Positions 26,054-64,000 of a stretch of 64,000 bases of DNA are shown here, one piece after another (within the stretch, counting starts at the first letter, position 1; every line of letters starts with the position of its first letter). Location: assembly GCF_055900595.2 (NCBI RefSeq), contig NZ_CM148325.1, one strand, 5' to 3'. Under the pieces are notes generated by a model. The model saw only the letters and a program-made list of their open reading frames with translations. It was not told the DNA's origin and ran no database searches. The position numbers and the translations under genes were made by a program.

Positions 26054-27349
<1,296 letters not shown>

Positions 27350-27486: not shown

Positions 27487-27505
27487 AAATCAGCCTCACA
27501 TCAGC

Positions 27506-32133: not shown

Positions 32134-32144
32134 TGGTTATTCCC

Positions 32145-33368: not shown

Positions 33369-33383
33369 CTCATTAAACCTGGG

Positions 33384-33716: not shown

Positions 33717-33738
33717 TATTCTCTCCTGGAGTTAAAAT

Positions 33739-35121: not shown

Positions 35122-35190
35122 AGGCTCATAATTTCTGGTGATTTTATGCCGCCAACTTTACTCGCCAGGCTCTGATTTTCCGGTGACAGG

Positions 35191-35212
35191 AAAATGACAA
35201 AATTGTCATTTT
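35191..35212. promoter_or_regulatory. Putative CusR box in the divergent cusC / cusR promoter region
   Basis: Perfect palindrome AAAATGACAAAATTGTCATTTT between cusC and cusR. Confidence 0.6.
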
Positions 35213-35277
35213 GCCAATAAGCGATTGCCATCTGATCCCGCTACTCTAGAATTGCCCGGGCAACATGCGGAGGAAAT

Positions 35278-35961
35278 ATGAAACTGTTGATTGTCGAAGA
35301 TGAAAAGAAAACCGGCGAATACTTAACCAAAGGGTTAACCGAGGCCGGTTTTGTGGTTGATTTGGCCGATAACGGGCTGAATGGATACCATCTGGCGATG
35401 ACAGGTGATTATGACCTGATAATCCTAGATATTATGCTGCCGGACGTGAACGGCTGGGATATCGTGCGTATGTTGCGTTCCGCCAATAAAGGGATGCCGA
35501 TTCTGTTGCTTACCGCGCTTGGCACCATTGAACATCGCGTCAAGGGGCTGGAGCTGGGAGCGGATGACTATCTGGTGAAGCCGTTCGCTTTTGCTGAACT
35601 GCTGGCGCGGGTGCGCACTCTACTGCGTCGCGGGGCGGCGGTGATTATCGAAAGTCAGTTTCAGGTTGCCGATTTAATGGTTGATCTGGTCAGCCGCAAA
35701 GTCACCCGCAGCGGCACGCGCATCACTTTGACCAGTAAAGAGTTTACTCTGCTGGAGTTTTTCCTTCGCCATCAGGGCGAAGTGCTGCCCCGCTCGCTTA
35801 TCGCCTCGCAGGTGTGGGACATGAATTTCGACAGCGACACTAACGCCATTGATGTGGCGGTGAAGCGGCTGCGCGGCAAAATCGACAACGACTTTGAGCC
35901 GAAGCTGATTCAAACCGTGCGCGGCGTGGGTTACATGCTTGAGGTGCCGGATGGTCAGTAA
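35278..35961 (+). CDS. cusR: Copper-responsive two-component response regulator (OmpR family)
   Basis: 227-aa [33 protein letters not shown]..., receiver plus winged-helix domains. Confidence 0.95.
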
Positions 35962-37393: not shown

Positions 37394-37542
37394 TCCTTCA
37401 GCAATCGGCAACTTTTATAACCAGTGTAAAAATAACGTGCCGCAATAATCCTACCTATTAATGATAAAAAGCTGTCACAATTCATAAAAAACTTTAATAT
37501 ACGCCACCCTAAACATAACCAGCGTTAATGTAAGGTTTTTGT

Positions 37543-42739: not shown

Positions 42740-43630
42740 ATGCGTAAGTTCATTTTCGTATTGCTGACACTGCTTTTGGTCAGCCCTTTTTCCTTTGCGA
42801 TGAAAGGTATTATCTGGCAACCACAAAACCGTGATAGTCAGGTTACCGATACCCAGTGGCAGGGGCTGATGAGTCAGTTACGTTTGCAAGGCTTCGATAC
42901 CCTGGTTTTGCAATGGACCCGTTACGGCGATGCATTCACCCAGCCAGAACAGCGCGCGTTATTGTTTAAGCGTGCCGCAGCTGCGCAACAGGCTGGCCTG
43001 AAGCTGATTGTCGGGCTGAATGCCGATCCGGAATTTTTTATGCACCAGAAACAGTCATCCGCGGCGCTGGAAAGCTATCTTAATCGCCTGCTGGCTGCCG
43101 ATCTCCAGCAAGCCAGATTATGGAGCGCCGTACCTGGCGTAACGCCGGATGGCTGGTACATCAGCGCGGAAATTGACGACCTGAACTGGCGCAGCGAAGC
43201 CGTCCGTCAGCCCTTGCTAACGTGGTTAAACAATGCGCAGCGGCTGATTAGTGATGTTTCGGCAAAACCGGTTTATATCAGTAGTTTTTTCGCCGGAAAT
43301 ATGTCGCCCGATGGCTATCGCCAACTGCTGGAACACGTTAAAGCAACCGGCGTTAATGTCTGGGTTCAGGATGGCAGCGGCGTTGATAAACTCACCGCTG
43401 AACAGCGTGAACGTTATCTACAGGCCAGCGCCGATTGCCAAAGCTCCGCCCCAGCAAGCGGCATTGTTTATGAACTGTTTGTCGCCGGCAAAGGCAAAAC
43501 CTTTACCGCGAAACCGAAACCGGATGCAGAGATCGCCTCGCTGTTAGCGAAACGTTCCTCTTGCGGTAAAGACACGCTCTATTTCTCTCTGCGCTATTTG
43601 CCCGTCGCGCACGGCATTCTCGAGTATTAA
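42740..43630 (+). CDS. ybcH: Periplasmic protein YbcH (third gene of the nfrBA-ybcH unit)
   Basis: 296-aa MRKFIFVLLTLLLVSPFSFAMKGIIWQP..., start immediately after the nfrA stop. Confidence 0.85.
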   Translation: MRKFIFVLLTLLLVSPFSFAMKGIIWQPQNRDSQVTDTQWQGLMSQLRLQGFDTLVLQWTRYGDAFTQPEQRALLFKRAAAAQQAGLKLIVGLNADPEFFMHQKQSSAALESYLNRLLAADLQQARLWSAVPGVTPDGWYISAEIDDLNWRSEAVRQPLLTWLNNAQRLISDVSAKPVYISSFFAGNMSPDGYRQLLEHVKATGVNVWVQDGSGVDKLTAEQRERYLQASADCQSSAPASGIVYELFVAGKGKTFTAKPKPDAEIASLLAKRSSCGKDTLYFSLRYLPVAHGILEY

Positions 43631-43812
43631 ATCTCCTCCAGGTAAGTCGGGTACGACCTGGCTTACCTCTTTCGCTCTCGTCAGAATTCCATCAAGATTA
43701 ATTGCTAAAAAGCGTGCTAAAGAAAGAAGATCGTTATCGGCGAACGGGCCGATCACTCATGCAGGAAGCATAGATCCTTTGAGCGGAGTTTCTGATATCT
43801 GAGGAGTGCGAA

Positions 43813-44574
43813 ATGCAATTGAGCAGCAGTGAACCTTGCGTGGTGATCCTGACCGAAAAAGAGGTAGAGGTAAGCGTCAATAACCATGCTACGTTTACCC
43901 TTCCGAAAAACTACCTGGCCGCCTTCGCGTGCAACAATAACGTCATTGAACTCTCAACGTTAAATCACGTATTAATCACCCACATCAACCGTAACATCAT
44001 CAACGATTATCTGTTGTTTTTAAATAAGAACTTAACCTGTGTAAAGCCCTGGTCGCGGCTGGCTACCCCGGTTATCGCTTGTCATAGCCGTACACCGGAA
44101 GTGTTCCGGCTAGCCGCCAACCACAGCAAGCAGCAACCCAGCAAACCCTGCGAAGCGGAGTTGACGCGCGCATTGCTTTTTACCGTATTGTCTAACTTTC
44201 TTGAGCAATCGCGGTTTATTGCCCTACTGATGTATATCTTACGCAGCAGCGTCCGCGACAGCGTCTGCCGCATTATTCAAAGCGATATTCAGCATTACTG
44301 GAATCTGCGAATTGTCGCCAGTTCGCTATGTTTAAGCCCCAGCCTGCTCAAAAAGAAATTAAAAAACGAAAATACCAGCTATAGCCAGATTGTCACAGAG
44401 TGTCGTATGCGTTACGCCGTACAGATGTTATTGATGGATAACAAAAATATCACTCAGGTAGCGCAATTATGTGGCTATAGCAGCACGTCGTACTTTATCT
44501 CTGTTTTTAAGGCGTTTTACGGCCTGACACCGTTGAATTATCTCGCCAAACAGCGACAAAAAGTGATGTGGTGA
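43813..44574 (+). CDS. envY: AraC-family transcriptional regulator EnvY
   Basis: 253-aa ORF with a C-terminal AraC-type HTH (QVAQLCGYSSTSYFISVFKAFYGLTPLNY). Confidence 0.85.
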   Translation: MQLSSSEPCVVILTEKEVEVSVNNHATFTLPKNYLAAFACNNNVIELSTLNHVLITHINRNIINDYLLFLNKNLTCVKPWSRLATPVIACHSRTPEVFRLAANHSKQQPSKPCEAELTRALLFTVLSNFLEQSRFIALLMYILRSSVRDSVCRIIQSDIQHYWNLRIVASSLCLSPSLLKKKLKNENTSYSQIVTECRMRYAVQMLLMDNKNITQVAQLCGYSSTSYFISVFKAFYGLTPLNYLAKQRQKVMW

Positions 44575-44619
44575 AGGGCAAAGCGGAAACAGATAAGACT
44601 GGCATAAATCAAGAAGAAA

Positions 44620-44664
44620 TGGCGCGCCCTGCAGGATTCGAACCTGCGGCCCACGACTTAGAAG
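44620..44664 (-). other. 45-nt copy of the 3' end of tRNA-Arg (argU), a prophage attachment-site repeat and not an intact tRNA
   Basis: Minus strand reads CTTCTAAGTCGTGGGCCGCAGGTTCGAATCCTGCAGGGCGCGCCA (T-arm, acceptor stem and CCA); identity to argU as recalled stops at the anticodon-stem side and there is no D-arm or anticodon loop. Confidence 0.75.
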
Positions 44665-45086
44665 TTCCTAGAACGACATTTTAAGTCAACAACTTACCGC
44701 GCCATCTCTGCGCTCACACGTCCCACTACCTCAAAACATGTAAAGCCTTGCAAGCCATTGTGAGGCCTTATGTGTCTCAGTTTTGTCCCTCTTTTTTGTA
44801 CTAAAAAACATAGTAATTGAGGATAAACCTCATGCTATTTTCGCTTATATGCCTCTAAAGGCATGGCACTTAAATAGATAAAAGCACCACAAAAGCATAA
44901 AAAACCACACAGTAAAACCGCAATATGAAACAATAACAGATAATTAAACCAAAAACAGATAGCGCATTGTGATAATCATTCAATACTAAACAAAATATAA
45001 ACAGTGGAGCAATATGTAATTGACTCATTAAGTTAGATATAAAAAATACATATTCAATCATTAAAACGATTGAATGGAGAACTTTT

Positions 45087-46040
45087 ATGCGGGCGAAACT
45101 TCTGGGAATATTCCTGACAACCCCTATTGCGATCAGCTCTTTTGCTTCTACCGAGACTTTATCGTTTACTCCTGACAACATAAATGCGGACATTAGTCTT
45201 GGAACTCTGAGCGGAAAAACAAAAGAGCGTGTTTATCTAGCCGAAGAAGGAGGCCGAAAAGTCAGTCAACTCGACTGGAAATTCAATAACGCTGCAATTA
45301 TTAAAGGTGCAATTAATTGGGATTTGATGCCCCAGATATCTATTGGGGCTGCGGGCTGGACTACTCTCGGCAGCCGAGGTGGCAATATGGTCGATCAGGA
45401 CTGGATGGATTCCAGTAACCCCGGAACCTGGACAGATGAAAGTAGGCACCCTGATACACAACTCAATTATGCCAACGAATTTGATCTGAATATAAAAGGC
45501 TGGCTCCTCAACGAACCCAATTACCGCCTGGGACTCATGGCCGGATATCAGGAAAGCCGTTATAGCTTTACAGCCAGAGGTGGTTCCTATATCTACAGTT
45601 CTGAGGAGGGATTCAGAGATGATATCGGCTCCTTCCCGAATGGAGAAAGAGCAATCGGCTACAAACAACGTTTTAAAATGCCCTACATTGGCTTGACTGG
45701 AAGTTATCGTTATGAAGATTTTGAGCTAGGTGGCACATTTAAATACAGCGGCTGGGTGGAAGCATCTGATAACGATGAGCACTATGACCCAGGAAAAAGA
45801 ATCACTTATCGCAGTAAAGTCAAAGACCAAAATTACTATTCTGTTGCAGTCAATGCAGGTTATTACGTAACACCTAACGCAAAAGTTTATGTTGAAGGCG
45901 CATGGAATCGGGTTACGAATAAAAAAGGTAATACTTCACTTTATGATCACAATGATAACACTTCAGACTACAGCAAAAATGGTGCAGGCATAGAAAACTA
46001 TAACTTCATCACTACTGCTGGTCTTAAGTACACATTTTAA
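45087..46040 (+). CDS. ompT: Outer-membrane protease (omptin)
   Basis: 317-aa MRAKLLGIFLTTPIAISSFASTETLSFTPDNINADISLGTLSGK... ending ...AGLKYTF. Confidence 0.9.
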   Translation: MRAKLLGIFLTTPIAISSFASTETLSFTPDNINADISLGTLSGKTKERVYLAEEGGRKVSQLDWKFNNAAIIKGAINWDLMPQISIGAAGWTTLGSRGGNMVDQDWMDSSNPGTWTDESRHPDTQLNYANEFDLNIKGWLLNEPNYRLGLMAGYQESRYSFTARGGSYIYSSEEGFRDDIGSFPNGERAIGYKQRFKMPYIGLTGSYRYEDFELGGTFKYSGWVEASDNDEHYDPGKRITYRSKVKDQNYYSVAVNAGYYVTPNAKVYVEGAWNRVTNKKGNTSLYDHNDNTSDYSKNGAGIENYNFITTAGLKYTF

Positions 46041-46289
46041 GAACGCCAACTAAAATTTCCCCGAGGTGAAAATCGCCCCGGGGAATAACTAGCCATTTCA
46101 ATGTAACAATTAACCCTTAAAATAAACCCAGAAGGTTATTAACTAAATCACATAGAAAACCATCAATTATAGTGTGTATAAAATAGCCGACAGCAACCCA
46201 ATTACAAATTAATGGTTCCAGAATATCACATCAAAAAACACGCTGTATAATATTATAATTAACATGTAGACAACTTGTAATAAACATTA

Positions 46290-47039
46290 TCAGTCAATTG
46301 TTTTGTTTATTCCATCTGTGACGCCGATTATTTTCTCAAAATAATGAGATGGCGTGACACCATAATAATCTTTAAATGCACATATGAAATATGAAGTACT
46401 GTTATAGCCACATTTCTGGGCTACGACATTGATAGAATAAGAGTTTGAAGTTATGAGTTTTTTTGCATACCTCATCCTAGTATCTCTCAATATTTCAGTA
46501 AATGACGTTCCTTCATCCCTTAATCTTTTTTTTATTAAACTTTCACTCGTATAAATCAATTCCGCAATATCTTTTAAATGCCATTGCCGCTCAATATTAA
46601 AACTGATTATTCCAGTAATTTTACATGTAAATGTATTTATATTTGTTAGTATAAATGAATTTACACTTTCGCGTTTTTTGAACATGGCAAGTAAGGATAT
46701 ACATAGTCTTTCTTTTAACCAAAGGGAGTGTGAGTCTGCTATTTTAATCCCTTCAAACAGAGAAAAAACAAGCGATAATGGAGGTTCCTCTTCAGCAATA
46801 TAGCCATTCTTATCAAGAGTAAATTTGCCAGGCAACTCATTATTCACGTCGATAAAAAAGGATAAACATGTTTTCTTATCTATATCAACAATTCTTAGTT
46901 TAGAGGGGCATACTGGTAACTCTCTTCTAATTTTGTCGCTTACAATAAACAATGAATTTTTTTTGAACGAGATAACTCTCCTGTTTATAATTAAATCAAA
47001 TGATTGACAGATGAAAACTACGGAGCAAACATAATCCAT
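46290..47039 (-). CDS. appY: AraC-family transcriptional activator AppY
   Basis: 249-aa [36 protein letters not shown]...; AT-rich gene and AT-rich upstream region (47040-47600). Confidence 0.9.
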
Positions 47040-47714
47040 CTTGCACCTATCATAAAATTAAAACAAGTTGATAGTAGTCAAATAACAGCCAATTAAATAC
47101 ACAATCATAATCAGGATGATGTGCATTTATATTTTTATACACAAAATTATAGTTTGCAAATTTTAATAAGTTTCATTTAAGATTAAATTATTATATGTAT
47201 ATTGTTTTTTATTCTAACGTATTTCAAAGTTACATTTTTCAACGCTTACTATGCTTTTTATTAACATAAACTCACTACAACGCACCTGAAACCTCTTGCT
47301 ATATATATGTCAACCGTTTGAATTTAAAATAAAAAGAGTATCATTTTTACTTGCATTTCTTATCAAGTCACATTCAACAACAGTAAAAAAACATTATTAG
47401 AACCATTCAATTAACAAAAAACCAACATCCAGCTTGCTTAATTTTTCTTTATTAAACGATATTGAAAATCAATTGATAAAATACATCTAAACAACCTTTT
47501 GGGGCGCAAAAGCATAACATCAAACAAACAAATAACACACCGAAAAAACTCACAATTAATAACCTATGATATACATACTGTTTATTATGGTTGAATAAGC
47601 CACTCGATATCTGGTGCTACGGAAGTGTCCACACGGTTTAGCAGCACCCGATACTTTTTCCAGGCTTCCAGCAACGAGTTTTCTTCCTCCGTTGCATATA
47701 CAGCTCACCTTTTT

Positions 47715-48732: not shown

Positions 48733-49014
48733 TCACATCCAGCCACGAAGTTGATGCTCAACAACAACCGCGTATTCATCGAATATTGACGGTGTTTTCA
48801 CATCATTAATGATGCGCACGTTTACAAAATATCCGTCTTCCTTAACACATACCGGCTCGCCATCTTCAGTAATTTCCCCGGTTTCTTTGTACACGTTACC
48901 TATCACATCAATGAGAACATTGTTCTGCATCACCTCGTCATCGTCATAACCAATGCTATCCATAAAGGCCGAAAAGTCGGCCTTGTCTGTGAATTTGATA
49001 ATTAAGTCTCGCAT
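48733..49014 (-). CDS. Hypothetical acidic protein (prophage tail region)
   Basis: 93-aa ORF between the two tail-fibre-like genes; no family recognised. Confidence 0.4.
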   Translation of the reverse strand: MRDLIIKFTDKADFSAFMDSIGYDDDEVMQNNVLIDVIGNVYKETGEITEDGEPVCVKEDGYFVNVRIINDVKTPSIFDEYAVVVEHQLRGWM

Positions 49015-50024
49015 TATATTACCTCTCCCATTTGTGCATCGGTTAATTCTTTATGCCATATACGAAAATTACGAATGTGACCGAAAAGATGACGTAGACC
49101 GCTATTAGTCTGTCCCCCAATCCTGAAGAAATAACCAGATTTAACACCGACATGATCCGTGGTTTTAGGAGTCCCATGCTGGGCATTGCTAACGAAATGC
49201 ACATTACCAGATTCATTTAAAACAAATCCAAGAACAGATTTTTGTTCAAATAATACTGGCGATACGGCGGCTACTGTACTACCGTTTTTATTGTGCATCG
49301 TAACACCAGGAAATAATGTTGAACTAATAGCAACACTTATATATTGACCCGGAGTTGTGCTCCCACCACTGGTATCAAAAATTCGTGGTGCTGCATTTGG
49401 CGTTTCGTTCCAGTTTGTATGAACTTCAGCTAGAAATGTTAAAGGTGGTGTACCGATATTGTTATTTGTTGGTATATTCACCATATCACTGGCTCTTGTG
49501 ACTGGCGTTGCCTCAGTAATAATAAACGAAGAAGCGCACGAACCGCCTTCGACCTGAGGAGTTGCAACATAAATATAATCATCTGCACCAGTGCTTCCCC
49601 CTTTTGGTGGTGCATATTGCACCATCGCACCGATCATATTTTCTGTATCAAGTGCCTTAATTGTTGCCTCAAAGAAAATCCATTTGCTTGCTTCATTTTT
49701 AACAGCCCTTGCAGTAATACGACTTGCAGCGCCGCCAGTTTTATCAATCGATAAATCTGTCATATTTAAGTAAGCATCACCCAGGAATTTGTAGGTAGAT
49801 CCATCATATTCTTCAAATCGTAATCGACATCTTAAATTTGGAGTCCCACTTTGTACCCTGCATGAGATAGTTACATACTTTTCATCGCCGGTAACATCAT
49901 ATCCTTTGCTTCCAGATACTGTGACAATAGAAATGGCTGAGGTTTGCCCCACCATTTCTGGTTTTAATGTGAATTTTGCGTACTGGAAACCAAAATCATC
50001 TACACCTGATGTATTTAAAATCAT
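49014..50024 (-). pseudogene. Putative phage tail-fibre / receptor-binding protein, probably 5'-truncated by IS1
   Basis: ORF 49014-50048; its first Met codon lies inside the IS1 terminal inverted repeat and the next in-frame ATG (50024) has no ribosome-binding site; C-terminus ...GYFFRIGGQTNSGLRHLFGHIRNFRIWHKELTDAQMGEVI resembles lectin-like tail-protein domains. Confidence 0.45.
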
Positions 50025-50049
50025 ATTTGATGACGGTAATGACTCCAAC

Positions 50050-50553
50050 TTATTGATAGTGTTTTATGTTCAGATAATGCCCGATGACTTTGTCATGCAG
50101 CTCCACCGATTTTGAGAACGACAGCGACTTCCGTCCCAGCCGTGCCAGGTGCTGCCTCAGATTCAGGTTATGCCGCTCAATTCGCTGCGTATATCGCTTG
50201 CTGATTACGTGCAGCTTTCCCTTCAGGCGGGATTCATACAGCGGCCAGCCATCCGTCATCCATATCACCACGTCAAAGGGTGACAGCAGGCTCATAAGAC
50301 GCCCCAGCGTCGCCATAGTGCGTTCACCGAATACGTGCGCAACAACCGTCTTCCGGAGCCTGTCATACGCGTAAAACAGCCAGCGCTGGCGCGATTTAGC
50401 CCCGACATAGCCCCACTGTTCGTCCATTTCCGCACAGACGATGACGTCACTGCCCGGCTGTATGCGCGAGGTTACCGACTGCGGCCTGAGTTTTTTAAGT
50501 GACGTAAAATCGTGTTGAGGCCAACGCCCATAATGCGGGCAGTTGCCCGGCAT
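50050..50553 (-). CDS. insB: IS1 InsB reading frame (expressed as an InsAB' fusion by -1 frameshift)
   Basis: 167-aa ORF ...[33 protein letters not shown]...; overlaps insA. Confidence 0.85.
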
Positions 50554-50747
50554 CCAACGCCATTCATGGCCATATCAATGATTTTCTGGTGCGTACCGGG
50601 TTGAGAAGCGGTGTAAGTGAACTGCAGTTGCCATGTTTTACGGCAGTGAGAGCAGAGATAGCGCTGATGTCCGGCGGTGCTTTTGCCGTTACGCACCACC
50701 CCGTCAGTAGCTGAACAGGAGGGACAGCTGATAGAAACAGAAGCCAC
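50472..50747 (-). CDS. insA: IS1 InsA protein
   Basis: 91-aa [43 protein letters not shown]... Confidence 0.85.
50488..50499 (-). promoter_or_regulatory. IS1 programmed -1 ribosomal frameshift site (A6C run)
   Basis: Minus strand reads CTTAAAAAACTC in the insA / insB overlap. Confidence 0.5.
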
Positions 50748-50801
50748 TGGAGCACCTCAAAAACACCATCATACACTAAATCAGTAAGTTGGCAGCATCA
50801 C

Positions 50802-51430
50802 CCATTACCGCCCATAATGATGATATTAGTGACGCCCTCACTAAATTCTGCGTAGCTCTCAATATCATCATTTGGATCAAAAGTTTCTTTATCCTTACCT
50901 GACCACTCAGCACCGCCAGACTGAGTGATGATATTTTGTGGTTTAATATTCCAGTCCAGCTCATAACGTTCAATACCATCGCCCTCAATGATATTTTTCC
51001 CCGTTGTGATTGCCTGAACGGCAAGCCATTCAATACGTGCACGAATAGCTTTAGCCTGATTTACAATCGCCTGTTTAACTTTAATATTACGCGCTCCAAA
51101 AGCATTGTATTGCTCAGGTGATACACCAGCAGGGCGCACAGCTAACTTATTTGGATCAATGCTGCTTTTCGGCTTCATATAGCCTGGACGAATTGTTTTT
51201 GATTCGAACCCTTCGTCACGTGAAACTTTACTACCCACCATAGGAGAACAAAACGCTGCAATTGGGATATTTGGATCGTCGATTGTATCAAGAATAATAT
51301 CGCGCGATTCAAACATTACCGAGCGAGTAAAAAACAAACTGGTAAACAACGCATTTAGTTGTTTTTGTACATCTACAGCATTAACCACCTGTACAAGCTG
51401 AGTAGGCGAATATAAATCAACCATACGCAT
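50802..51430 (-). pseudogene. Divergent lambda-E-like major capsid protein gene, 3'-truncated by IS1
   Basis: ATG at 51430 gives MRMVDLYSPTQLV... (compare lambda E MSMYTTAQLLA); continues ...NIITQSGGAEWSGKDKETFDPNDDIESYAEFSEGVTNIII (compare lambda E NNITQSGGTEWSKRDKSTYDPTDDIEAYALNASGVVNIIV), then runs into the IS1 end after about 206 codons. Confidence 0.6.
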
Positions 51431-51640
51431 CCTCTTTGCATTCATTAAAAATAATTGTGGATATATGCTATCACCGATATTTGTCATGCGAACACATGCA
51501 ACCGAGTGCAATGTTGTATAAAGTTTTGGGGTGACAACTTCAGTGCGGACAATTAGTGTTAATATCTTCACTCCCTTTGGTCGGGATTTATGTAGCATGC
51601 CGGAAAATTTATTTTTTCTGGCTTTTTTTATTGGCAATAT

Positions 51641-52090
51641 TTAAAACGGGATATCATCTCCCCATTGCTCATTATCTCCCACTGGTGGCTGGCTTCCTTG
51701 CTGATCTGCCTGTTGTTTTGCTCTGTTCAGTGCGTCAGTAGCCTGCCCCTGTTGGCCTTTATTGCCGCCCGGTCGCACCGATCGCGCACTGATTACGCTG
51801 TCTGCGATAACCTGCCAGCCCTGCCGCGTTTCGCCGTTCTGTCCAGTCCACTGGCTCATCTGCATGTTACCCGCCACGCTCAGGAGTTCGCCTTTGTGAT
51901 GCTTTGCCAGCGCGTCGGCTTGTCTGCCAAACGCCAGGACAGATAACCACATCGTCGCCTGACCGTCATCCGACTGACTGCAGGGCAGTGATACCGCCAT
52001 ACGCGCCAGCGTCATGGGGGTGCCCTTGCTGGTCTGTTTTGTCTGCGGGTCGTCCACCAACCGCCCGTAAACTGATATTTGCGCCGTCAT
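51641..52090 (-). CDS. ssb: Single-stranded DNA-binding protein
   Basis: 149-aa ORF with an OB-fold-like N-terminal region, a Gly/Gln-rich linker and the acidic SSB tail ending DDIPF. Confidence 0.75.
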   Translation of the reverse strand: MTAQISVYGRLVDDPQTKQTSKGTPMTLARMAVSLPCSQSDDGQATMWLSVLAFGRQADALAKHHKGELLSVAGNMQMSQWTGQNGETRQGWQVIADSVISARSVRPGGNKGQQGQATDALNRAKQQADQQGSQPPVGDNEQWGDDIPF

Positions 52091-52332
52091 GCTGCCTGCT
52101 CTCCGGACTTAATATTGATTGTTGTCACTTCCTCCGCTTCAGCAATCTCCCGTTCGGTCAGAGTGGCAAAGTTTGCAGCCGCCGTTGTCATGAATGCGCT
52201 AATCAGTTCGGGATGTGCTTTCGCGTATCCTTCCCCGGCGTTGCGGTCGATGATTTTTATCGACACCCTTAACCAGTGTTCCGTCAAATCAAGGGCGTGC
52301 GATTGTGATTTTTTTGTGTGCTTCGCTGTCAT
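52087..52332 (-). CDS. Hypothetical protein, translationally coupled to ssb
   Basis: 81-aa ORF whose stop overlaps the ssb start (ATGA); no family recognised. Confidence 0.45.
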   Translation of the reverse strand: MTAKHTKKSQSHALDLTEHWLRVSIKIIDRNAGEGYAKAHPELISAFMTTAAANFATLTEREIAEAEEVTTINIKSGEQAA

Positions 52333-52379
52333 AGGCTTTATCTCACAGCAGTAAATTAAAATTTTTGCGTTTTAACCCT

Positions 52380-52610
52380 TCACCTGTTCACCTTTTGATA
52401 TTTTCTCTTTTAATTCATAATGTTAATGGGTGAACAGTTTCACAAAAACTATTCACCAACTGTTCACCACTGTTCACCCTTGAAGCTCAATAAACAATCA
52501 AAAAGGTGAACAGTGAATAGTTTGGTGAACAGTTCATAAATAACTGTTCACCCTATAATATACTGATATAAAAGATATTTATGACAGGGTGAACAGTGGT
52601 GAACAGTTAT
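52380..52610. repeat. Iteron array (about ten copies of CTGTTCACC / GGTGAACAG in both orientations), putative satellite origin of replication
   Basis: Copies near 52385, 52429, 52451 (variant), 52461, 52471, 52505, 52524, 52545, 52588 and 52598, interspersed with AT-rich spacers; the octamer TGTTCACC is the P4 type I iteron as recalled; lies directly 3' of the primase gene. Confidence 0.65.
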
Positions 52611-52619
52611 TCCATAAGT

Positions 52620-54440
52620 TTAATTTTTGCTATCGTCATTAGTGACCGATACACATGATGGCATCCAGTCTTCTGATTCCTCCGTCAGTGTCACGTTTGA
52701 ACGCAAACCGTGCTTCGTTTTCCGTTTCATATACTCCCTGCCATATTCCGCCATTGCCCCCGGCATATCTTTACCGAAGCGCGTCAGTGTTACAGGTTTA
52801 CCAAACCCATGTGCCCTCATATAAGCCAGATAGGCATGATAGAGATACCTGCGTGGGCTAAATGGCACAATTTCAGCATTACCCACTAACAGGCCATCAC
52901 ACATTACCGATGCCATGAGATAGCCGCAGAAGTCCACCAGCGAATCCCCCTCTCGCTTTATCGCCAGTGCTTCTTCAGATTTCTGCTGCTCATATAACAG
53001 GCGTCTGGCTTCGTCCTGATCATCAAACCGTGTAAGCAGATGACGAATCACTACCGCCAGCTCACCTTCTATTTTTTCCGCCAGCATCGAATCGCGTTCG
53101 TTCTCCGGTACAACTTCCGAAAAATTGAATATCACCCGACGACGTGAGATCCCCCCGCTGCGGTCACTGAATGACATGGCGTTATTGTTAACCGCCAGCA
53201 CTACTGCCGGAATACGCGTTGAATAGGGGGCTTTGTGTTTCGGGTCAATTGCCACCTTGTCACCGCCTGTAATGGCCTTAATCCCTGCCCCATCACCAGC
53301 GTAGCGGGTCATATCCGGCATGATAATCAGCGAAAAGCCAACCACTAACGCACGTTCCCTTGCATCTTCCAGCGCCTTCATGCTTGCTGATACTGTATTA
53401 GCCTTACCCGCCAGCATGGTGCAAATCTCCGCCATCACACTTTTACCACTTCCCCCCGGCCCTGTTACCTCAATGAATAACTGCCAGTCGTACCGGTTCG
53501 CCAGCACCATGAATAATGCCGCCAGTACGCGATCTGCCTTGCGGTCATTCTCAGCCACCGAACGGCGCAACCACTTCCAGAAATTCGGCGCATGTGTTGC
53601 CAGCGTTTCCCCCTCTGCTGGTGGGCTGAAAGGTAATTCACTGGCAATTAACAACCAGTCGTTTTTGTTATGCTCCCGAAAATTACCTGTTCTGGTATCA
53701 AATACCCCGTTACTGAATCCAATCAGGTTACGGGCTGTATTCCCCATTACAGGCAAACTTAACTTCATGGTATCTACCGCCGATTTAATGGCGTTCTGCG
53801 AATAGCTGATCTCCACATCAATGAAAATCTGCGCCATAGCACGCTGTAACTCTTTATCCTGAACCGGCTCCCATACAACGCCGTTGTAATGATGAACGGT
53901 GTCAGAGTCGGCATTGATTGCCAGTTCGCCGCCGTAATGTGCCAGGAGAACTTCACCGCGCTGGCTGGCCCCCATCTGATTCAACGCCAAAGATGAAGCA
54001 CGCTCGTCATTTTTGCGCTCTGCCTTCTTCACTGGCAGTTCAATCACCAGACTTTCCCCATGCTCCGCTTCAGCTTTTAGGCCGACAAGGCGCGGAGTCC
54101 AGTCTTCAGGCTCTCGATCAACAAAGCTACGGTAACAACGTGCTTCCTTTACGCCTGCAATAGCAAGTAATGTCGCAACCTTCGTCAGATTTTTCTCTGC
54201 GATCTTTCCGGCACGATAAACACGCACATAATGACGGCCTTCATCGATAATTTGCATATCATCCAGGTTTTCCAGTTGTTCCGTACCCAGAATTACTGGT
54301 GGTGTATCATCTGCTGCAATATGCTTACCCGCCCATTCATTCCATTCTTTTGCATGGCTCCAGGCATCACTGCCAGCAAAAATGATGACTTCTGTCATTT
54401 TGTCGCGCGGTTGGTATTTTAAGTTCGGAGCACGTTTCAT
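52620..54440 (-). CDS. Primase/helicase-type replication initiator (P4 alpha / D5-like, P-loop NTPase)
   Basis: 606-aa ORF; Walker A GPGGSGKS in the C-terminal half; iterons immediately downstream. Confidence 0.8.
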   Translation of the reverse strand: MKRAPNLKYQPRDKMTEVIIFAGSDAWSHAKEWNEWAGKHIAADDTPPVILGTEQLENLDDMQIIDEGRHYVRVYRAGKIAEKNLTKVATLLAIAGVKEARCYRSFVDREPEDWTPRLVGLKAEAEHGESLVIELPVKKAERKNDERASSLALNQMGASQRGEVLLAHYGGELAINADSDTVHHYNGVVWEPVQDKELQRAMAQIFIDVEISYSQNAIKSAVDTMKLSLPVMGNTARNLIGFSNGVFDTRTGNFREHNKNDWLLIASELPFSPPAEGETLATHAPNFWKWLRRSVAENDRKADRVLAALFMVLANRYDWQLFIEVTGPGGSGKSVMAEICTMLAGKANTVSASMKALEDARERALVVGFSLIIMPDMTRYAGDGAGIKAITGGDKVAIDPKHKAPYSTRIPAVVLAVNNNAMSFSDRSGGISRRRVIFNFSEVVPENERDSMLAEKIEGELAVVIRHLLTRFDDQDEARRLLYEQQKSEEALAIKREGDSLVDFCGYLMASVMCDGLLVGNAEIVPFSPRRYLYHAYLAYMRAHGFGKPVTLTRFGKDMPGAMAEYGREYMKRKTKHGLRSNVTLTEESEDWMPSCVSVTNDDSKN

Positions 54441-54724
54441 TTGTTACCTCCGGCAACTAACATTGCCCGAATTTTGCGGATATAGCCTGCGGCACGCCTC
54501 TGATTATCTGTCTTGCAATTTTTTACCAGAATGAAATCTCTTTCGAACTGCTGACGCGGCATAACACATTCAAAATCATAACCATCACGCAAATAAGAGA
54601 CACGACGATCATCAACCGAAATAATCTTTACCCGATAGCCATAGCTGTCTTTGAAAATATCCCCAAGGCTGATTTTTGAATGAGTTTGACCGCTGGCAAT
54701 AAAGCCAGAAAATTTATTTTTCAT
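54437..54724 (-). CDS. Hypothetical small basic protein, translationally coupled to the primase
   Basis: 95-aa ORF with a GGAG ribosome-binding site 8 nt upstream of the ATG; stop overlaps the primase ATG (ATGA). Confidence 0.45.
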   Translation of the reverse strand: MKNKFSGFIASGQTHSKISLGDIFKDSYGYRVKIISVDDRRVSYLRDGYDFECVMPRQQFERDFILVKNCKTDNQRRAAGYIRKIRAMLVAGGNK

Positions 54725-54727
54725 TTT

Positions 54728-54952
54728 TTATTCTCCGGTATAGCTCTGGTCGTGTATTTTTATAGCTTCATCCAGCTCTTTGATGACAGGATCAAGTAAC
54801 GTAATTAACGCTCCAGCTAAATTAGCATCCCGTTCATCGTGTTCCGCATTTGTTGTCCCATCAAGCCAGGTTGATAAGATTTCTCGCATATTTTTGCCAC
54901 AAACGAGCGCGTTTTCAGCATGTGTCAGCACTTTAAAATAAAGATCATTCAT
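54728..54952 (-). CDS. Hypothetical small acidic protein
   Basis: 74-aa ORF in the same operon-like array upstream of the primase. Confidence 0.4.
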   Translation of the reverse strand: MNDLYFKVLTHAENALVCGKNMREILSTWLDGTTNAEHDERDANLAGALITLLDPVIKELDEAIKIHDQSYTGE

Positions 54953-55148
54953 GGCACACCTCCTGACGAATACGGGCGGCGAATATCATCACGTAGCCAG
55001 TTGGGGATTGCAGCCGGGCTTCCTGTTCGCTGGCGGCCTCGATGGTAATCACGCGCGGTTGTGCCGTACTCAGGGCGATAAAACGCCAGATGTATTTATT
55101 CAGGTTGTGCGGGTCCCGCCCTTGCGGGTGTGTGGTATGATTTCTCAT
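54945..55148 (-). CDS. Hypothetical small protein (first gene of the leftward replication operon)
   Basis: ATG at 55148 with a GAGG ribosome-binding site 7 nt upstream gives MRNHTTHPQGRDPHNLNKYIWRFIAL...; the longer ORF to 55259 is probably an extension. Confidence 0.4.
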   Translation of the reverse strand: MRNHTTHPQGRDPHNLNKYIWRFIALSTAQPRVITIEAASEQEARLQSPTGYVMIFAARIRQEVCHE

Positions 55149-55287
55149 AGCTACCTCGATACTGTTGCTATCGTTGGTGGTTAGAAGCCCGTTGGTGTTC
55201 CTAGCACCTTCGGGCTTTGCTTTTTTAAGTGCCTCCGTGTTAAGGTGGTCACCTAACAATGAAAAGGCTAATTCAATAGGTGGTCAC

Positions 55288-55479
55288 TTGTCAACGATCA
55301 AACGCGATAAAAGTCCTAAGGGTGATGGGCAATCTCCACAATTCAGAATGCGAATTTCTCCAGAGCTAAAAGAGCAATTCGACAAAGAAGCGCAGAGCGA
55401 CGGCATAAGCCTAGCCAACTGGCTTAAAGAATTAGGGCGCAAAGAGCTGCTACGGCGCGGTATTGAACCAAAAGGATAA
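55288..55479 (+). CDS. Putative ribbon-helix-helix (Arc/MetJ-like) DNA-binding protein
   Basis: TTG at 55288 preceded by AGGTGG; product ...FRMRISPELKEQFDKEAQSDGISLANWLKELGRKEL has the beta-strand then two-helix pattern of Arc-type repressors; an alternative ATG start at 55348 is possible. Confidence 0.5.
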   Translation: MSTIKRDKSPKGDGQSPQFRMRISPELKEQFDKEAQSDGISLANWLKELGRKELLRRGIEPKG

Positions 55480-55506
55480 GAATAATTGAAGTCAAGGAGC
55501 TAACAC

Positions 55507-55863
55507 ATGAAATACGAATTCTTCGCAACAAGTAGCAGTAGTTTGGATGTATACATAGTCACTGTATCAAACGATTCTGGCTCTCTAATCATGACTTGTA
55601 ATTGTCCAGCAGGAAGTAAAGGTATTCTATGTAGACACCGTAAAGCTTTAATTACCGGAAAAATCCGCGGTATATTCACTCCCCCAAGAAGGAATAATCC
55701 CGAAAAATTACAAGAAGCTATAAATTTAATAGCCACATATGGCATAGATAAAACATTAAAGTTGTACACTGATGAGTTAGAACGAGCAGAACAGACTTGG
55801 ATAAGTGTTCGCGATAATTTGAGAGCAATGATAAACGCTCTTGTTGAACCACCTAAATATTGA
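55507..55863 (+). CDS. Small SWIM-type zinc-finger protein
   Basis: 118-aa ORF with an AAGGAG ribosome-binding site; CNCPAGSKGILCRH fits the SWIM CxCx(n)CxH motif. Confidence 0.55.
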   Translation: MKYEFFATSSSSLDVYIVTVSNDSGSLIMTCNCPAGSKGILCRHRKALITGKIRGIFTPPRRNNPEKLQEAINLIATYGIDKTLKLYTDELERAEQTWISVRDNLRAMINALVEPPKY

Positions 55864-55929
55864 ACTGTTCACATTGCCTATCAGGCGATAACCTCGTATT
55901 CTGATTAAGGCTAACTATATACTCACATT

Positions 55930-55955
55930 GGCGACCAATTCTGGTCGCCTTTATC
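55930..55955 (+). terminator. Rho-independent terminator after the SWIM gene
   Basis: GGCGACCA-ATTC-TGGTCGCC hairpin followed by TTTATC. Confidence 0.5.
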
Positions 55956-55994
55956 TACCATTTTTATAATATCATAGATTAAGAGTGTTAATCC

Positions 55995-56816
55995 TTACCC
56001 CCTGAATGGAATTGATGAGGATTTAATTTCCACAGAACCAAATCCTCTTGAATCCAAAAACATTTTTATACCAGCCTCAATAAAATCATAATCGCTTGTC
56101 GGGCCAATTGTAATGCTTTTAATTGGTAACTTTCTATTATCTTTATTATTAATAATGATATAAGGGATGATACCATTATTATTTATTCTAAATTTCACAT
56201 CTGGCATTTGTATCCACGGAGTAAACACCAGTCTAAATTCATTTTCTTCGATAAAACTAGGATGTTTAAAAAATGGGATATATTTAGATATAAATTGATA
56301 CGTAGAGACCATTGTTACAAAATGATCATTCATTTCTTTAATGTTAATACCATTACAAGAAAAAAACTCATCCAACTCCTTACTCATCTTTGTAATATCG
56401 TCATTATTTGAATATATAACATCATGTGCAACACAATTTAAATAAATATTTTGACAAAAACTCACAAGTTCATCCGCATCAAATTCAATGCAAACGCCCT
56501 GTTTATTTCCGTAACCTCTCCACTGACTTAACTTATCGTTTTCTTTACAAAAAGATATGCTATAAACATGTTTATCAATCCCTTTTTCTTTTTGTAACTT
56601 CCCTTTCTCATACATGTCAAGAGACTTGAGCAAAATAGTTTTCTTATCTTTTGGGATGATATTATCATCAACTATTTTAATTGTATTTCGAAAACATTCA
56701 CATCCATGGTTAGACTCCTCTTTATCATTTAAGAAATATATATTTGTAGCCCATAAAGAATTAGAGTCTAATATACCTTTCAAACCAAAAAGATCTGTAT
56801 AATGAAATATAGCCAC
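55995..56816 (-). CDS. DUF2971-like protein of unknown function on an AT-rich cargo segment
   Basis: GTG at 56816 preceded by AGGTGG gives (M)AIFHYTDLFGLKGILDSNSLWATNIYFLNDKEE...; the N-terminal aromatic-HYT ... LW ... NDxxE pattern is assigned to DUF2971 from memory; markedly AT-rich by eye compared with the neighbouring int/alpA. Confidence 0.6.
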   Translation of the reverse strand: MAIFHYTDLFGLKGILDSNSLWATNIYFLNDKEESNHGCECFRNTIKIVDDNIIPKDKKTILLKSLDMYEKGKLQKEKGIDKHVYSISFCKENDKLSQWRGYGNKQGVCIEFDADELVSFCQNIYLNCVAHDVIYSNNDDITKMSKELDEFFSCNGINIKEMNDHFVTMVSTYQFISKYIPFFKHPSFIEENEFRLVFTPWIQMPDVKFRINNNGIIPYIIINNKDNRKLPIKSITIGPTSDYDFIEAGIKMFLDSRGFGSVEIKSSSIPFRG

Positions 56817-56833
56817 AATGCCCCACCTAATAG

Positions 56834-57064
56834 TTAAGTCGTTTCCCACTCACCTCGAATCCATGCCTGCACTTCTGAAAGACGATATGCAACAGCAGTG
56901 GAACCAATCTTGATCCGCTTAGGAAATTTTCCTTCCTTCTCCAGCTTCCAGCGTGTGCTGTTCGCAAGAGTGGTTAGCTCCCGACATTCTTTCTCACGGA
57001 TCATACGATCGATGTTAGGAATGTACTCCAGACCCTTTTTATCAACAATTGCCATTTTTTTCAT
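56834..57064 (-). CDS. alpA: AlpA-family transcriptional regulator / excisionase-like protein
   Basis: 76-aa MKKMAIVDKKGLEYIPNIDRMIREKECRELTTLANSTRWKLEKEGKFPKRIKIGSTAVAYRLSEVQAWI..., immediately downstream of the integrase. Confidence 0.8.
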   Translation of the reverse strand: MKKMAIVDKKGLEYIPNIDRMIREKECRELTTLANSTRWKLEKEGKFPKRIKIGSTAVAYRLSEVQAWIRGEWETT

Positions 57065-57065
57065 G

Positions 57066-58301
57066 TTAACCAGCCTTTTGTTTGAGGATTGTCACTTTTG
57101 AATCAGCACCTGCGATGCTATTGAGATATGTAGTCCAGAGTTCCAGAGCATCCAGTTTTTTAGCCATAAACTTACTCCGGTTGTAAACACCCGCCACGCC
57201 AGGTAGCGCATGGCCTAACAGTTGTTCTACTACATAAAATTCAACACCGAGATCACTTAGATGAGTAGATAGCGTTCTTCTAAGGTCGTGTAGTGACCAT
57301 TGTTTTTCATGGCCCAAACGTTTACCGATTTTCCCCCCAATCTTGCTTACGCTTTCTCTAATTCGCAGACTTCCCAGCACATAACCAGTATGTTTTGTCT
57401 CTTCGTGAACATCCGTTACCCACTGTCGTAGAATTTCAGGTACTGGTCTGACGATTTCAACACCAGTTTTTGAGTGATCTTTTGGTACCGTCCAAACCCA
57501 ACTTTCGAGATCCCATTCGCTCCATTCAGATAATCGGGCTTCACTCATTCGACATCCAAATACTGTACAAAGCACAAACATTTTTCGCGTGTATTCAGAC
57601 ATTAGTTTTAAATCAGGCTCGACAAAAATTGCCTTCCAGAGCTGGCCGAGTTCGGCTTCATCCAGAACCCGATCCCGCTTACCTGCAATCTGCCCCACAT
57701 CACTCATGCGCAAATCCTTTAAAGCATCACACGTCGCGTACTGGCGTACCCGACAAAAACGAAGAGCTAATTTAGTGTCAGAAAAAACATACGCCGCCAT
57801 AACTGGTGCATTACGTTTAATTCGGTCAAAACAGTCCAGCCATTCATATAGGTGAGTGTCATTTACGGGCAAATGACCGATATAGGGAAAGATATGCTTT
57901 CGAAATCTGCCAAGCGTTACAGCATGAGTTTTACGACGCACCTTACAGTAATTTTCATACCAGTAATTTAGTGCATCCTCCACTGTGACCGGCTTTAAGC
58001 GTTCTTCAGCCTGAATCTTAATCTGGATACGCGGATCACGTTTGTCAGCCAACCAACCACGGCACTCGTCGCGCTTTTCCCTTGCCTGTTTGAGTGACAT
58101 ATCAGGATATTTACCCAACGTTAGCCAGACCGGAGCAGCCCGGCCACCTGCTAACCTGTAGAAGAAAACAAAGCTCACAGCCCCTTTAGTACTCACACGA
58201 ATAGAAAGCCCCTTTCCATCAGCAATGGTGATCTGCTTTTCTCTGGGTTTCCCCAGATATCCTTTAAGCGCTTTGTCGCTCAGTTTGTTCTCGCCAGCCA
58301 T
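57066..58301 (-). CDS. Tyrosine recombinase, P4-type integrase
   Basis: ATG at 58299-58301 gives MAGENKLSDKALKGYLGKPREKQITIADGKGLSIRV...; C-terminal catalytic region with ...HDLRRT... and ...LLGHAL...Y motifs; the 5' end sits about 160 bp from the point where the E gene breaks. Confidence 0.85.
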   Translation of the reverse strand: MAGENKLSDKALKGYLGKPREKQITIADGKGLSIRVSTKGAVSFVFFYRLAGGRAAPVWLTLGKYPDMSLKQAREKRDECRGWLADKRDPRIQIKIQAEERLKPVTVEDALNYWYENYCKVRRKTHAVTLGRFRKHIFPYIGHLPVNDTHLYEWLDCFDRIKRNAPVMAAYVFSDTKLALRFCRVRQYATCDALKDLRMSDVGQIAGKRDRVLDEAELGQLWKAIFVEPDLKLMSEYTRKMFVLCTVFGCRMSEARLSEWSEWDLESWVWTVPKDHSKTGVEIVRPVPEILRQWVTDVHEETKHTGYVLGSLRIRESVSKIGGKIGKRLGHEKQWSLHDLRRTLSTHLSDLGVEFYVVEQLLGHALPGVAGVYNRSKFMAKKLDALELWTTYLNSIAGADSKVTILKQKAG

Positions 58302-58433
58302 TTTTAGCCCCAAAAAGCAATACAAGCTGCAATACAGAGATGATTGCAACACACAGATAACGAGGAAAATTCAGTGAAAGCACCAGATAAACTTATTCTT
58401 TATTATCAAAAGATTAAGTGTAAAAACCAGCAA

Positions 58434-58709
58434 CTACACGAAAGCCTCAGAAAGCCATGCTAAGTGCTTGGGTTTGACATAACCCGGCGTAAATTCAGAG
58501 GTGGAGCCGCCACGGGATCGGATAACCTCACCGGAAACAATCGGCGAAACGTACAGCGCCATGTTTACCAGTCCCGGAATTTGTGAGAGATAGACTTTTT
58601 CCGTGGTGAAAGGATAGGTTTCACGGAAAAACAGGCGCAGAAACAGCGGATCGAACTTAAAGTGATGCTGGGTCGATGCCAGTAATTCTGCAGTTGTATA
58701 TACAGACAT
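58434..58709 (-). pseudogene. Lambda-like major capsid protein E, N-terminal 82 codons only
   Basis: MSVYTTAELLASTQHHFKFDPLFLRLFFRETYPFTTEKVYLSQIPGLVNMALYVSPIVSGEVIRSRGGSTSEFTPGYVKPKH then unrelated LAWLSEAFV and a stop; similarity to lambda E ends at 58463/58464. Confidence 0.8.
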
Positions 58710-58764
58710 AAATTATTTCCATAAAAAAAGCCGCACAGGCGGCCTTTGTTGATGAAGGGGAAGA

Positions 58765-59097
58765 TTAAACGATGCTGATTGCCGTTCCGGCAAACGCGGT
58801 CCGTTTTTTAGTCTCGTCGCTGGCAGCCTCCGGCCAGAGCACATCCTCATAACGGAACGAGCCGGACTTGTAGAACGTCAGTGTGGTGCTGGTCTGGTCA
58901 GCAGCAACCGCCAGAATGCCAACGGCTGCACCGTCGGTGGTGCCATCCCACACAACCAGCTTACGGGTAGTGCCATCCAGCATCAGCGGGGTCATTGCAG
59001 GCGTTTTCGCACTCAATCCGCCAGGCGCAATTGCTGTATGAGCCGGATCACTGTTACCCAGCGGCTGGTAATGGTTAAACTCTTCTTTTGTCGCCAT
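58765..59097 (-). CDS. Head decoration protein (lambda D-like)
   Basis: 110-aa [42 protein letters not shown]...FAGTAISIV, close to lambda gpD as recalled. Confidence 0.9.
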
Positions 59098-59106
59098 AAC
59101 TGCCTC

Positions 59107-60418
59107 TTATACCGGTAAAGCTTCAGGTGTATTAAGTAATTCTTTATTGGTATCAGATGCCAGGTTACCTGCAGCCAGCGGTGCCGGTGCACCCTGCATC
59201 AGACGATCCAGCGCAGTGTCACTGCGCGCCTGTGCACTCTGTGGTGCTGCAGCCAGAATGCGGCGGGCCGTTTCCACGGTCATTCCGGGGGTTTCGGCCA
59301 GAACGCGCGCCTGTTCTTCGCGTCCGTGAGCCTCCTCACAGTTGAGGATCCCCATAATGCGGCTGTTTTCTGCCGCAACCGCTGCGGTGATCTGCGCGTT
59401 CACGTCCGGCTGCGCCGCGCTGGCGTTTTCGCCCTCCGTCGCTGGCACCACGTCAGTAACGTCAGCCTGCGAAGCAGTGGCTGAAACAGTTGTTGATTGA
59501 GTCTCTTTGGTCATTCGCCCTCCTGAGAGACGGGATTTACGCGCATCCAGTGCATCACGCATGACGGTGATCGCATCGGTGCTGTTAACAAGTTCATCAG
59601 CCAGTCCGGCATCAATGGCCTCCTGACCGCTGTACACTGCAGCCTCGGTATCCAGCACAGCCTGCACAGACAGGCCGGTATATGCCGACACCTTCTGCGC
59701 AAACATCTGGCGGGTTGCGTCCATCCGGGACTGCAGTGTCTCCCGGACGTCATCCGGAAGATGGCTGTAGGGATTGCCATCCACCTTATGGCTGCCGCTG
59801 TAAATCAGCGTGATTTCCACACCCTGTTTCTCCAGGGCAGCACCGTAATTACTGTGAGCCATCATGACGCCGATGGAGCCTGTCCGGGCGGTCTGCGTGA
59901 CCAGACGCCGGGAGGCGGCACTGGCAAGCAGCTGACCTGCACTGCAGTTCATGTCGTTGGCCAGCGCCCATACCGGTTTTATGTCACGCACACGGGCGAT
60001 GATGTCAGCGCAGTCAAATGCCCCCGCCACCATTCCGCCTGGCGTGTCCATATCGAGCAGAATGCCGTCCACCATCGGGTCGCTGGCAGCCTGTTGCAGA
60101 CGGGCGATAATGCCGTTGTAACCGGTCATCCCCGAGTACGGCTGCAGCGCCCGCGTCCGGCTGACCAGCGTGCCGGACACCGGCAGCACGGCGATGCCGT
60201 TCATGACCTGATAACTGCGGGCCTGTCGTGGTCCGTCATCATCACCGGATAATGCCAGCGTCGCGAGTGCCTCCTGGGCAGTCAGGCTGTCGCCGGACAC
60301 CGCATCCGTCAGGCGGCTGATCCCAAGCTGGCCTGCAAGCGCACAAAAGAAAACCCGCGCATAGGCGGGTTCAAGCATCAGCGGCTCATTAAAGGCCATG
60401 CTGGCAATATGCGGGAGA

Positions 60419-60438
<20 letters not shown>
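59107..60438 (-). CDS. Head maturation protease / scaffold (lambda C-like, with nested Nu3-type scaffold frame)
   Basis: GTG at 60438 gives (M)TAELRNLPHIASMAFNEPLMLEPAYARVFF...; overlaps the portal gene end by about 20 nt as in lambda. Confidence 0.85.

Positions 60439-64000
<3,562 letters not shown>

Follow-up and report, generated by a model that had tools for sequence, protein, structure and literature searches.

Junction between a fragment of prophage capsid gene E and an Eco567.11capE-family satellite remnant in Escherichia coli

P4-type integrases usually target tRNA genes. P4-like satellites carry psu, sid, delta and epsilon genes and have a P2-like helper, and the capsid-forming PICIs (cf-PICIs; Alqurainy et al. 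2023) reportedly encode a complete capsid module of their own (terS, portal, protease, capsid and connectors). The EcCICFT073-type chromosomal Gram-negative PICIs (Fillol-Salom et al.) are presented, in the summary given in PMC10111431, as sitting in chromosomal genes away from the helper and as acting in trans only. A further class was named helper-embedded PICIs (HE-PICIs) by Tommasini, Mageeney & Williams 2023, NAR Genomics Bioinformatics (PMC10111431). Its member Eco567.11capE, in strain NRG857c, is an 11-kb island that sits in, and disrupts, the lambda-E-like capsid gene of a prophage located at icd. The site is designated E:Phage_cap_E:80, a 10-bp identity block is shared between attL and attR, and the island encodes a diverged capsid gene of its own (PMC10111431). 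After treatment of NRG857c with mitomycin C, the composite excised and replicated and the satellite then excised precisely, as followed by qPCR and deep sequencing. An HE-PICI-specific motif, tgTGTATTGCantgTGTATTGCa, flanks the attP centre on both sides, at distances of 81±2 bp and 132±2 bp. Many HE-PICI helpers appear truncated, and virions were not recoverable in the published work (PMC10111431).

Here we describe a junction between a fragment of gene E and an integrase-bearing satellite in a 64-kb stretch of E. coli DNA (64,000 nucleotides of contig NZ_CM148325.1, assembly GCF_055900595.2; the whole stretch is called the window below). Positions 27500–47100 of the window are ordinary E. coli backbone in K-12 order (pheP, cusABFC, cusRS, nfrBA, ybcH, envY, ompT, appY). 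We conclude, with a probability of about 0.95, that the junction is the attL end of an HE-PICI of the Eco567.11capE family and that the copy in the window has since decayed by an IS1-associated deletion. The element family has already been described, and the window adds no new principle.

The E/satellite junction in the window

We compared the window with a set of 5426 complete E. coli genomes and with loci from E. coli NRG857c (L001), W284 (L002), AST216 (L005) and T-HYM1 (L008). The features around the junction are as follows.

58465..58709, minus strand: 5′ fragment of the helper prophage major capsid gene E, codons 1–82; 90% identity to lambda gpE residues 1–82; its last 10 bp are the shared core
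58465..58474, no strand: att core or identity block TGCTTGGGTT (AACCCAAGCA on the E coding strand), codons K79–H82; single copy in the window, present at both satellite ends in NRG857c and W284
58302..58464, no strand: integrase-proximal arm of the satellite attachment site (attL arm); identical up to the core in NRG857c, W284, AST216 and T-HYM1; unrelated to E
58317..58335, minus strand: doubled arm motif GCAATAC-N5-GCAATAC (TGTATTGC-type repeats on the minus strand); sole occurrence in the window; ~132 bp from the core centre

The E-like ORF (58434–58709, minus strand, start at 58709) was aligned with what we take to be the lambda E sequence, which acted in the analysis as a full-length E homologue. 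It shared 74 of 82 amino acids with gpE residues 1–82 without gaps (E=2e-54), and the match ended exactly at His82, in agreement with an earlier reading made from the sequence alone, in which the frame followed lambda E for 82 codons and then switched. At the DNA level, homology to E extended from 58709 down to 58465 (uninterrupted E genes of other genomes matched the junction query from its position 1400, which is window position 58465). Alignment to these intact E genes thus places the end of E-derived DNA exactly at 58465 and the E/satellite boundary at 58464/58465; the switch reported earlier is real, but its position had been set 1 bp off, at 58463/58464. Base 58464 is satellite-derived, and codon 82 still encodes His by chance (CAC instead of CAT). 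In other genomes, PGAP names the same fragment 'major capsid protein, missing C-terminus'.

The core 10-mer TGCTTGGGTT occurs once in the 64-kb window, as the attL core at 58465–58474, attR having been deleted, and the crossover point would lie somewhere within these 10 bp. Between the junction and the integrase start (58301) there are 163 bp of non-coding DNA. The spacing of the doubled motif in this arm fits the published value of 132±2 bp, and a third, degenerate copy of the motif is found at about 58344–58352. A GC-rich hairpin (GCCGC-n4-GCGGC, 58727–58746) in the D–E intergenic region, followed by a T-run on the minus strand, resembles an intrinsic terminator; the terminator scan reported it on the plus strand only.

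Upstream of E, the window continues through the head genes of the helper prophage.

58765–59097, minus strand: D, helper head gene upstream of E
59107–~60440, minus strand: C/S49 protease, helper head gene
60419–62020, minus strand: B portal, helper head gene
62017–62223, minus strand: W, helper head gene
62220 to beyond 63965, minus strand: A terminase, helper head gene

Over 58765..64000, these genes were 97–99% collinear with the annotated prophage head genes in NRG857c and W284. From the flanking appY, ompT, envY, nfrAB and cus genes we infer that the helper occupies the DLP12 position next to appY/ompT, the argU att site lying outside the window.

Satellite genes and comparison with described elements

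On the other side of the junction, the satellite runs from the integrase gene to a capsid gene that is cut by IS1.

57066..58301, minus strand: satellite tyrosine integrase, 411 aa, apparently intact; Pfam Arm-DNA-bind_3 and Phage_integrase; 410/411 identity to the NRG857c 11capE integrase
56834..57064, minus strand: alpA (excisionase/regulator); Pfam Phage_AlpA, E=3.7e-15
55101..56844, no strand: variable 'dynamic' zone, the sole stretch not collinear with the NRG857c satellite
55995–56849, minus strand: DUF2971 protein of the variable zone (Pfam DUF2971)
55507–55863, plus strand: SWIM-type protein of the variable zone
55165–55479, plus strand: small ORF of the variable zone
54945–55259, minus strand: Icd-like cell-division inhibitor; NCBIfam phage_ICD_like, 67.6 bits
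54728–54952, minus strand: small hypothetical ORF, in the gene block 54437..55259
54437–54724, minus strand: DUF4222 protein, in the gene block 54437..55259
52620..54440, minus strand: P4-family primase (replication zone); TIGR01613 primase_Cterm, E=3.6e-27, 95 bits, below the curated cut-off of 108.7 bits
52087–52332, minus strand: small hypothetical ORF
51641–52090, minus strand: satellite SSB; TIGR00621 ssb, 70 bits
50803..51424, minus strand: the satellite's own E-like major capsid gene, cut by IS1 after codon 207 of 346; collinearity with NRG857c ends at 50803

The integrase ORF lies on the same strand as E, reads away from the junction and has the domain architecture of P4/CP4-57 integrases. 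Its distance from the boundary, its Pfam domains and the alpA gene that follows it all agree with the earlier description of a P4-type integrase, about 160 bp further on and transcribed away from the break. With 410 of 411 residues identical to those of the type element, the integrase would belong to the HE-PICI clade and to its cap_E subclade. Outside the variable zone (55101–56844), the satellite is 99% collinear with 11capE of NRG857c; the gene that corresponds there to the primase is named DNA primase family protein by PGAP, and the block 54437..55259 was likewise named via the PGAP names of its collinear NRG857c genes. The zones follow one another in the order int–alpA, DUF2971/SWIM/icd-like, primase–SSB and capsid′, the late zone being truncated by IS1. 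All of E′, D, C, B, W and A as well as the satellite int, alpA, primase, SSB and capsid′ are on the minus strand.

The DUF2971/SWIM version of the variable zone was found in 35 complete genomes, where PGAP names the products DUF2971 and SWIM zinc finger proteins. In PADLOC, the matches of the variable-zone proteins were weak (19–20 bits) and confined to candidate families, and we claim no defence function for them. Among the loci compared, a swap hotspot extends from alpA to the icd-like gene (window 55101–56844; NRG857c 17679–18868; W284 17771–18901; AST216 18840–19750). In the window it is occupied by the DUF2971 and SWIM genes; W284 has a TIR-domain protein there, AST216 an abortive-infection protein and NRG857c yet other genes. 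A second cargo hotspot is located at the far end of intact satellites, with DUF262 and HEPN in NRG857c (9653–11369), an Abi protein and a small terminase subunit in AST216 (10835–12828) and a restriction endonuclease in T-HYM1 (6820–7692).

With Eco567.11capE the window shares the 10-bp core in the same E codons, the int-side arm, the doubled motif at the same spacing, the order int, alpA, variable zone, primase, SSB and capsid, and the orientation relative to the helper late genes. It differs in that its helper is at the DLP12 position instead of icd and its variable zone holds DUF2971 and SWIM genes instead of those of NRG857c. Moreover, the satellite copy, truncated by the IS1, has lost half of its capsid gene, its decoration gene, the far arm with attR and the cos-like segment; from its helper, the tail genes and the 3′ portion of E are missing.

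The resemblance to other satellites is partial. As far as the EcCICFT073-type PICIs are covered by the published summary, elements of the 11capE family share with them a similar size, an int–alpA module, a primase replication module, a late-zone gene of the capsid family and presumed lambdoid cos packaging, but differ in integrating inside, and disrupting, a late gene of the helper. P4 and P4-like satellites have in common with the window an Arm-DNA-bind_3 P4-type integrase, alpA, a P4-family primase, an Icd-like gene and a variable cargo hotspot. However, the 11capE family has a lambdoid and not a P2-like helper and integrates into a phage gene instead of a tRNA gene, and an Rfam scan of window positions 50000–59200 at E≤0.1 found no immunity RNA of the C4/isrK type. 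The genes psu, sid, delta and epsilon were absent from the annotated genes of the NRG857c, W284, AST216 and T-HYM1 copies and from an NCBIfam scan of the window ORFs. Like the cf-PICIs, the 11capE family encodes its own major capsid protein homologue; unlike them, it has only capsid and decoration genes (with a small terminase gene, terS, in some relatives) and no portal, protease or head–tail connector set.

The satellite capsid gene could suggest a quite different origin of the junction, namely homologous recombination between this E homologue and the helper E that left a hybrid gene. In the full-length NRG857c homologue, however, protein identity to lambda gpE is 42% over the whole length, and such a pair is too diverged. 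In addition, the junction lies beside int and the att arm, 7 kb from the satellite capsid gene, and the core-equivalent site in that gene reads ctTTtcGGcT, with only 5 of 10 bases matching. We therefore regard a recombinant origin of this kind as having a negligible chance of being correct.

Intact copies and empty sites in other genomes

The junction region (57900–59100) was detected in 169 of the 5426 complete genomes and the integrase gene with its arm in 173, at 97.8–99.7% DNA identity. An even sample of the matches included 28 integrase-bearing rows, and in every one of them the sequence ran on past the junction into E, so that the same int is indeed found beside E in other genomes; no copy of the integrase at a tRNA site was seen among the sampled rows. 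These results bear on whether E could be a secondary, off-target site of an integrase that normally uses a tRNA or housekeeping gene. The general preference of P4-type integrases for tRNA genes would be in line with this. Furthermore, 28 off-target events have been reported for HE-PICI integrases, as has a small group with a near-identical integrase in tRNA-Phe (PMC10111431). Against this stand the 28 of 28 rows in E, the 201 elements counted at the E site in PMC10111431 and the use of that site in prophages of at least three contexts, which make off-target integration highly improbable.

In NRG857c, W284, AST216 and T-HYM1, an element of ~11 kb separates one major capsid gene into two annotated halves, a 246-bp 5′ part beside int and a 789-bp 3′ part at the opposite end. 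Together the halves amount to 1035 bp, which is 9 bp above a lambda-length E gene (341 codons plus stop) and is consistent with a short sequence common to both annotated fragments. Read directly, the satellite ends are ...cacctcaTGCTTGGGTTacatgagtc... at the far end and ...gctaagTGCTTGGGTTtgacataaccc... at the int end. The core 10-mer is present exactly twice in the NRG857c locus (9489 and 20566) and exactly twice in that of W284 (9581 and 20566), at the element ends. We assembled a virtual empty site of 610 bp from the 3′ E flank of NRG857c, the core and the 5′ E flank of the window, and from end to end it was 100% identical to uninterrupted E genes of several strains, LF82 among them. The predicted attB junction sequence of the restored site is CACCTCATGCTTGGGTTTGACATA. 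An uninterrupted E homologue is held by 3097 genomes.

Two core variants were found. The second, TGCTTCGGCT, is synonymous with TGCTTGGGTT in E and is present at both element ends in AST216 (~10666 and ~21398) and T-HYM1 (~6616 and ~17565); within one genome, the attL and attR variants are identical. In the genomes with TGCTTCGGCT, the satellite sequence immediately beyond the core does not differ. It seems that the attP core tracks the E allele of the helper. The junction query matched some genomes at 99.6% identity and most at about 94.7%, compared with >99% for the int query; judged by these values, E and D beside the junction differ between genomes much more than the satellite does.

The helpers vary as well. 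AST216 carries the satellite in a complete lambdoid prophage at tRNA-Arg (argU, intD) that adjoins ompT and ybcH, and the T-HYM1 prophage has Qin-type genes (cspI, cspB, cspF, ydfT, nohA). The T-HYM1 satellite, also in E, has a variable zone 100% identical to that of the window, and its helper represents a third context besides icd and argU.

Taken together, the two E halves, the perfect empty site, the linkage of the integrase to E and the variety of helpers indicate repeated site-specific integration. A single ancient rearrangement is hard to reconcile with the varied helper contexts, E/D alleles and core variants. For the source genome itself, the case for site-specific integration rests on near-identity to intact composites elsewhere, because attR and the 3′ part of E are absent from the window.

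The alternative considered in the sequence-only reading was that a recombination or deletion had fused the two elements. In such a case, illegitimate recombination or a deletion would have joined a satellite from elsewhere, for example from a tRNA gene beside the prophage, to a truncated E. The window by itself has one junction only, and it contains a real IS1-associated deletion, so that a deletion mechanism has been active in the region. A fusion would nevertheless have to account for a base-identical junction in about 170 genomes with both E halves around the satellite, for flanks that rejoin to a perfect empty site, and for a break that coincides with a 10-bp repeat and keeps a constant spacing to the arm motifs. 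The 64-kb window contains no tRNA or tmRNA gene at all, which also speaks against such a source. Finally, the E break does not coincide with the deletion endpoint at IS1, which is ~7.7 kb away in the satellite capsid gene. We therefore reject a fusion as the origin of the E junction; the likelihood that it is correct is vanishingly small. The reading preferred earlier, an attL–int end placed in a phage structural gene instead of a tRNA gene, is upheld by the split E gene, the 10-bp block, the empty site, the 28 of 28 rows and the published excision.

The far end of the satellite is known from the intact copies. In NRG857c, the far-side doubled motif lies about 80 bp from the core centre; it is absent from the window through the deletion. 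A 258-bp cos-like segment (NRG857c 11590–11847), also described in PMC10111431, is 90% identical to the helper sequence at 26729–26986, beside the small terminase subunit gene (nohD). The far arm (ACATGAGTCAAT...), apart from the GCAATAC repeats, differs past ~12 bp from the core between satellites with the same integrase. When used as queries, the NRG857c far junction and far arm retrieved only about 30 genomes and, because of this variation, are unusable as a census of intact versus orphaned copies. For the same reason, the lack of matches (0) to the predicted circular or concatemer attP junction CATGCTAAGTGCTTGGGTTACATGAGTCAATCC in IMG/VR viral contigs is uninformative on packaging.

In the mechanism we propose, an intact satellite of about 11 kb would integrate into E, splitting the gene, in the same orientation as the late operon. 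Its order is int, alpA, variable zone, icd-like gene, primase, SSB, E-like capsid, D-like decoration, cos-like segment and variable defence-type cargo. Upon prophage induction, the whole composite excises and replicates, and subsequent excision of the satellite restores E, as was measured in NRG857c (PMC10111431). Helper late transcription might read through into the satellite int, as the shared gene orientation and a consensus scan that listed no minus-strand terminator between E′ and int faintly suggest. The helper cos machinery would then package the satellite, and the capsid and decoration homologues may build satellite-sized heads.

IS1-associated deletion and decay of the composite

Two features mark the far side of the satellite remnant.

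50035..50802, minus strand: IS1, 768 bp, complete, with no target-site duplication (left flank tttgatgac, right flank cattaccgc); deletion endpoint
49014..50034, minus strand: fragment of the prophage side tail fibre (stf-like) gene; 100% identical to the tail-fibre/appY-proximal end of DLP12-locus prophages in 11 genomes

The IS1 is 99.7% identical to IS1 copies in E. coli O121 strain 201805972 (L003), and PGAP assigns the matching copies to the IS1A family. To its left lie the stf fragment, tail-fibre genes, appY, ompT, envY, ybcH, nfrAB and cus, which are 100% identical to the right ends of DLP12-locus prophages in 11 genomes. The endpoints of the deletion are thus codon 207 of the satellite capsid gene and the side tail fibre gene of the prophage, and about 18 kb is missing when set against AST216. 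The satellite has lost the C-terminal part of its capsid together with the decoration gene and an HTH regulator, and further on the cos-like segment, the cargo of the far end and the far arm with attR. Lost from the helper are the last 789 bp of E at its 3′ end, the genes FI through J, lom and a portion of stf. IS1 insertion followed by an adjacent deletion, or recombination between two IS1 copies, would account for the arrangement.

The tail-fibre flank, IS1 and the satellite capsid flank were found together in no complete E. coli genome of the collection; since this exact junction is absent there, the deletion is neither datable nor demonstrably shared. It had been claimed earlier that the helper lost its capsid gene at the satellite boundary. 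The loss of E is true of the source genome, but at that boundary E was only split, and it was the separate IS1 event that removed the rest. The prophage is unable to make capsids or tails. The remnant should be unable to excise, because attR is missing, and unable to be packaged, because cos is missing. What is left in the window is thus an immobile remnant of a known element, lying in a prophage at the DLP12 position that has itself decayed.

Related prophages show other rearrangements. In strain 201805972, a related, diverged satellite (12198–24656) is apparently embedded in a portal gene, annotated as missing its N-terminus, and the region has four IS1 copies. One of them (16001–16769) interrupts the satellite capsid gene 3 bp from where the window IS1 sits, is oriented like it and has a clean 9-bp duplication, TACCACCCA; on account of this duplication, its insertion was independent of that in the window. 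It is doubtful that the satellite capsid gene is a preferred IS1 target or that its inactivation is selected, as is the broader proposal that the remnant is kept for its intact int, alpA, primase and DUF2971/SWIM genes. In E. coli Z0117EC0005 (L004, 22418–24291), a DLP12-locus prophage has a small-terminase fragment fused straight to a tail-fibre gene. This is a different deletion, with the whole head and tail region gone.

The decayed state of the window copy was anticipated by the truncated appearance of many HE-PICI helpers (PMC10111431). The window is of value as a well-resolved example of E site use in a prophage at the DLP12 position, and it shows the decay of a composite through IS1-linked loss of attR, the cos-like segment and helper morphogenesis genes. 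For annotation, a 'partial major capsid protein' pseudogene beside an integrase gene is here half of an att-split gene and not the product of random decay. More broadly, the helper-embedded satellite represents an unusual form of parasitism: it sits within an essential late gene, is replicated and probably transcribed along with its helper, and holds the helper capsid gene hostage until it excises.
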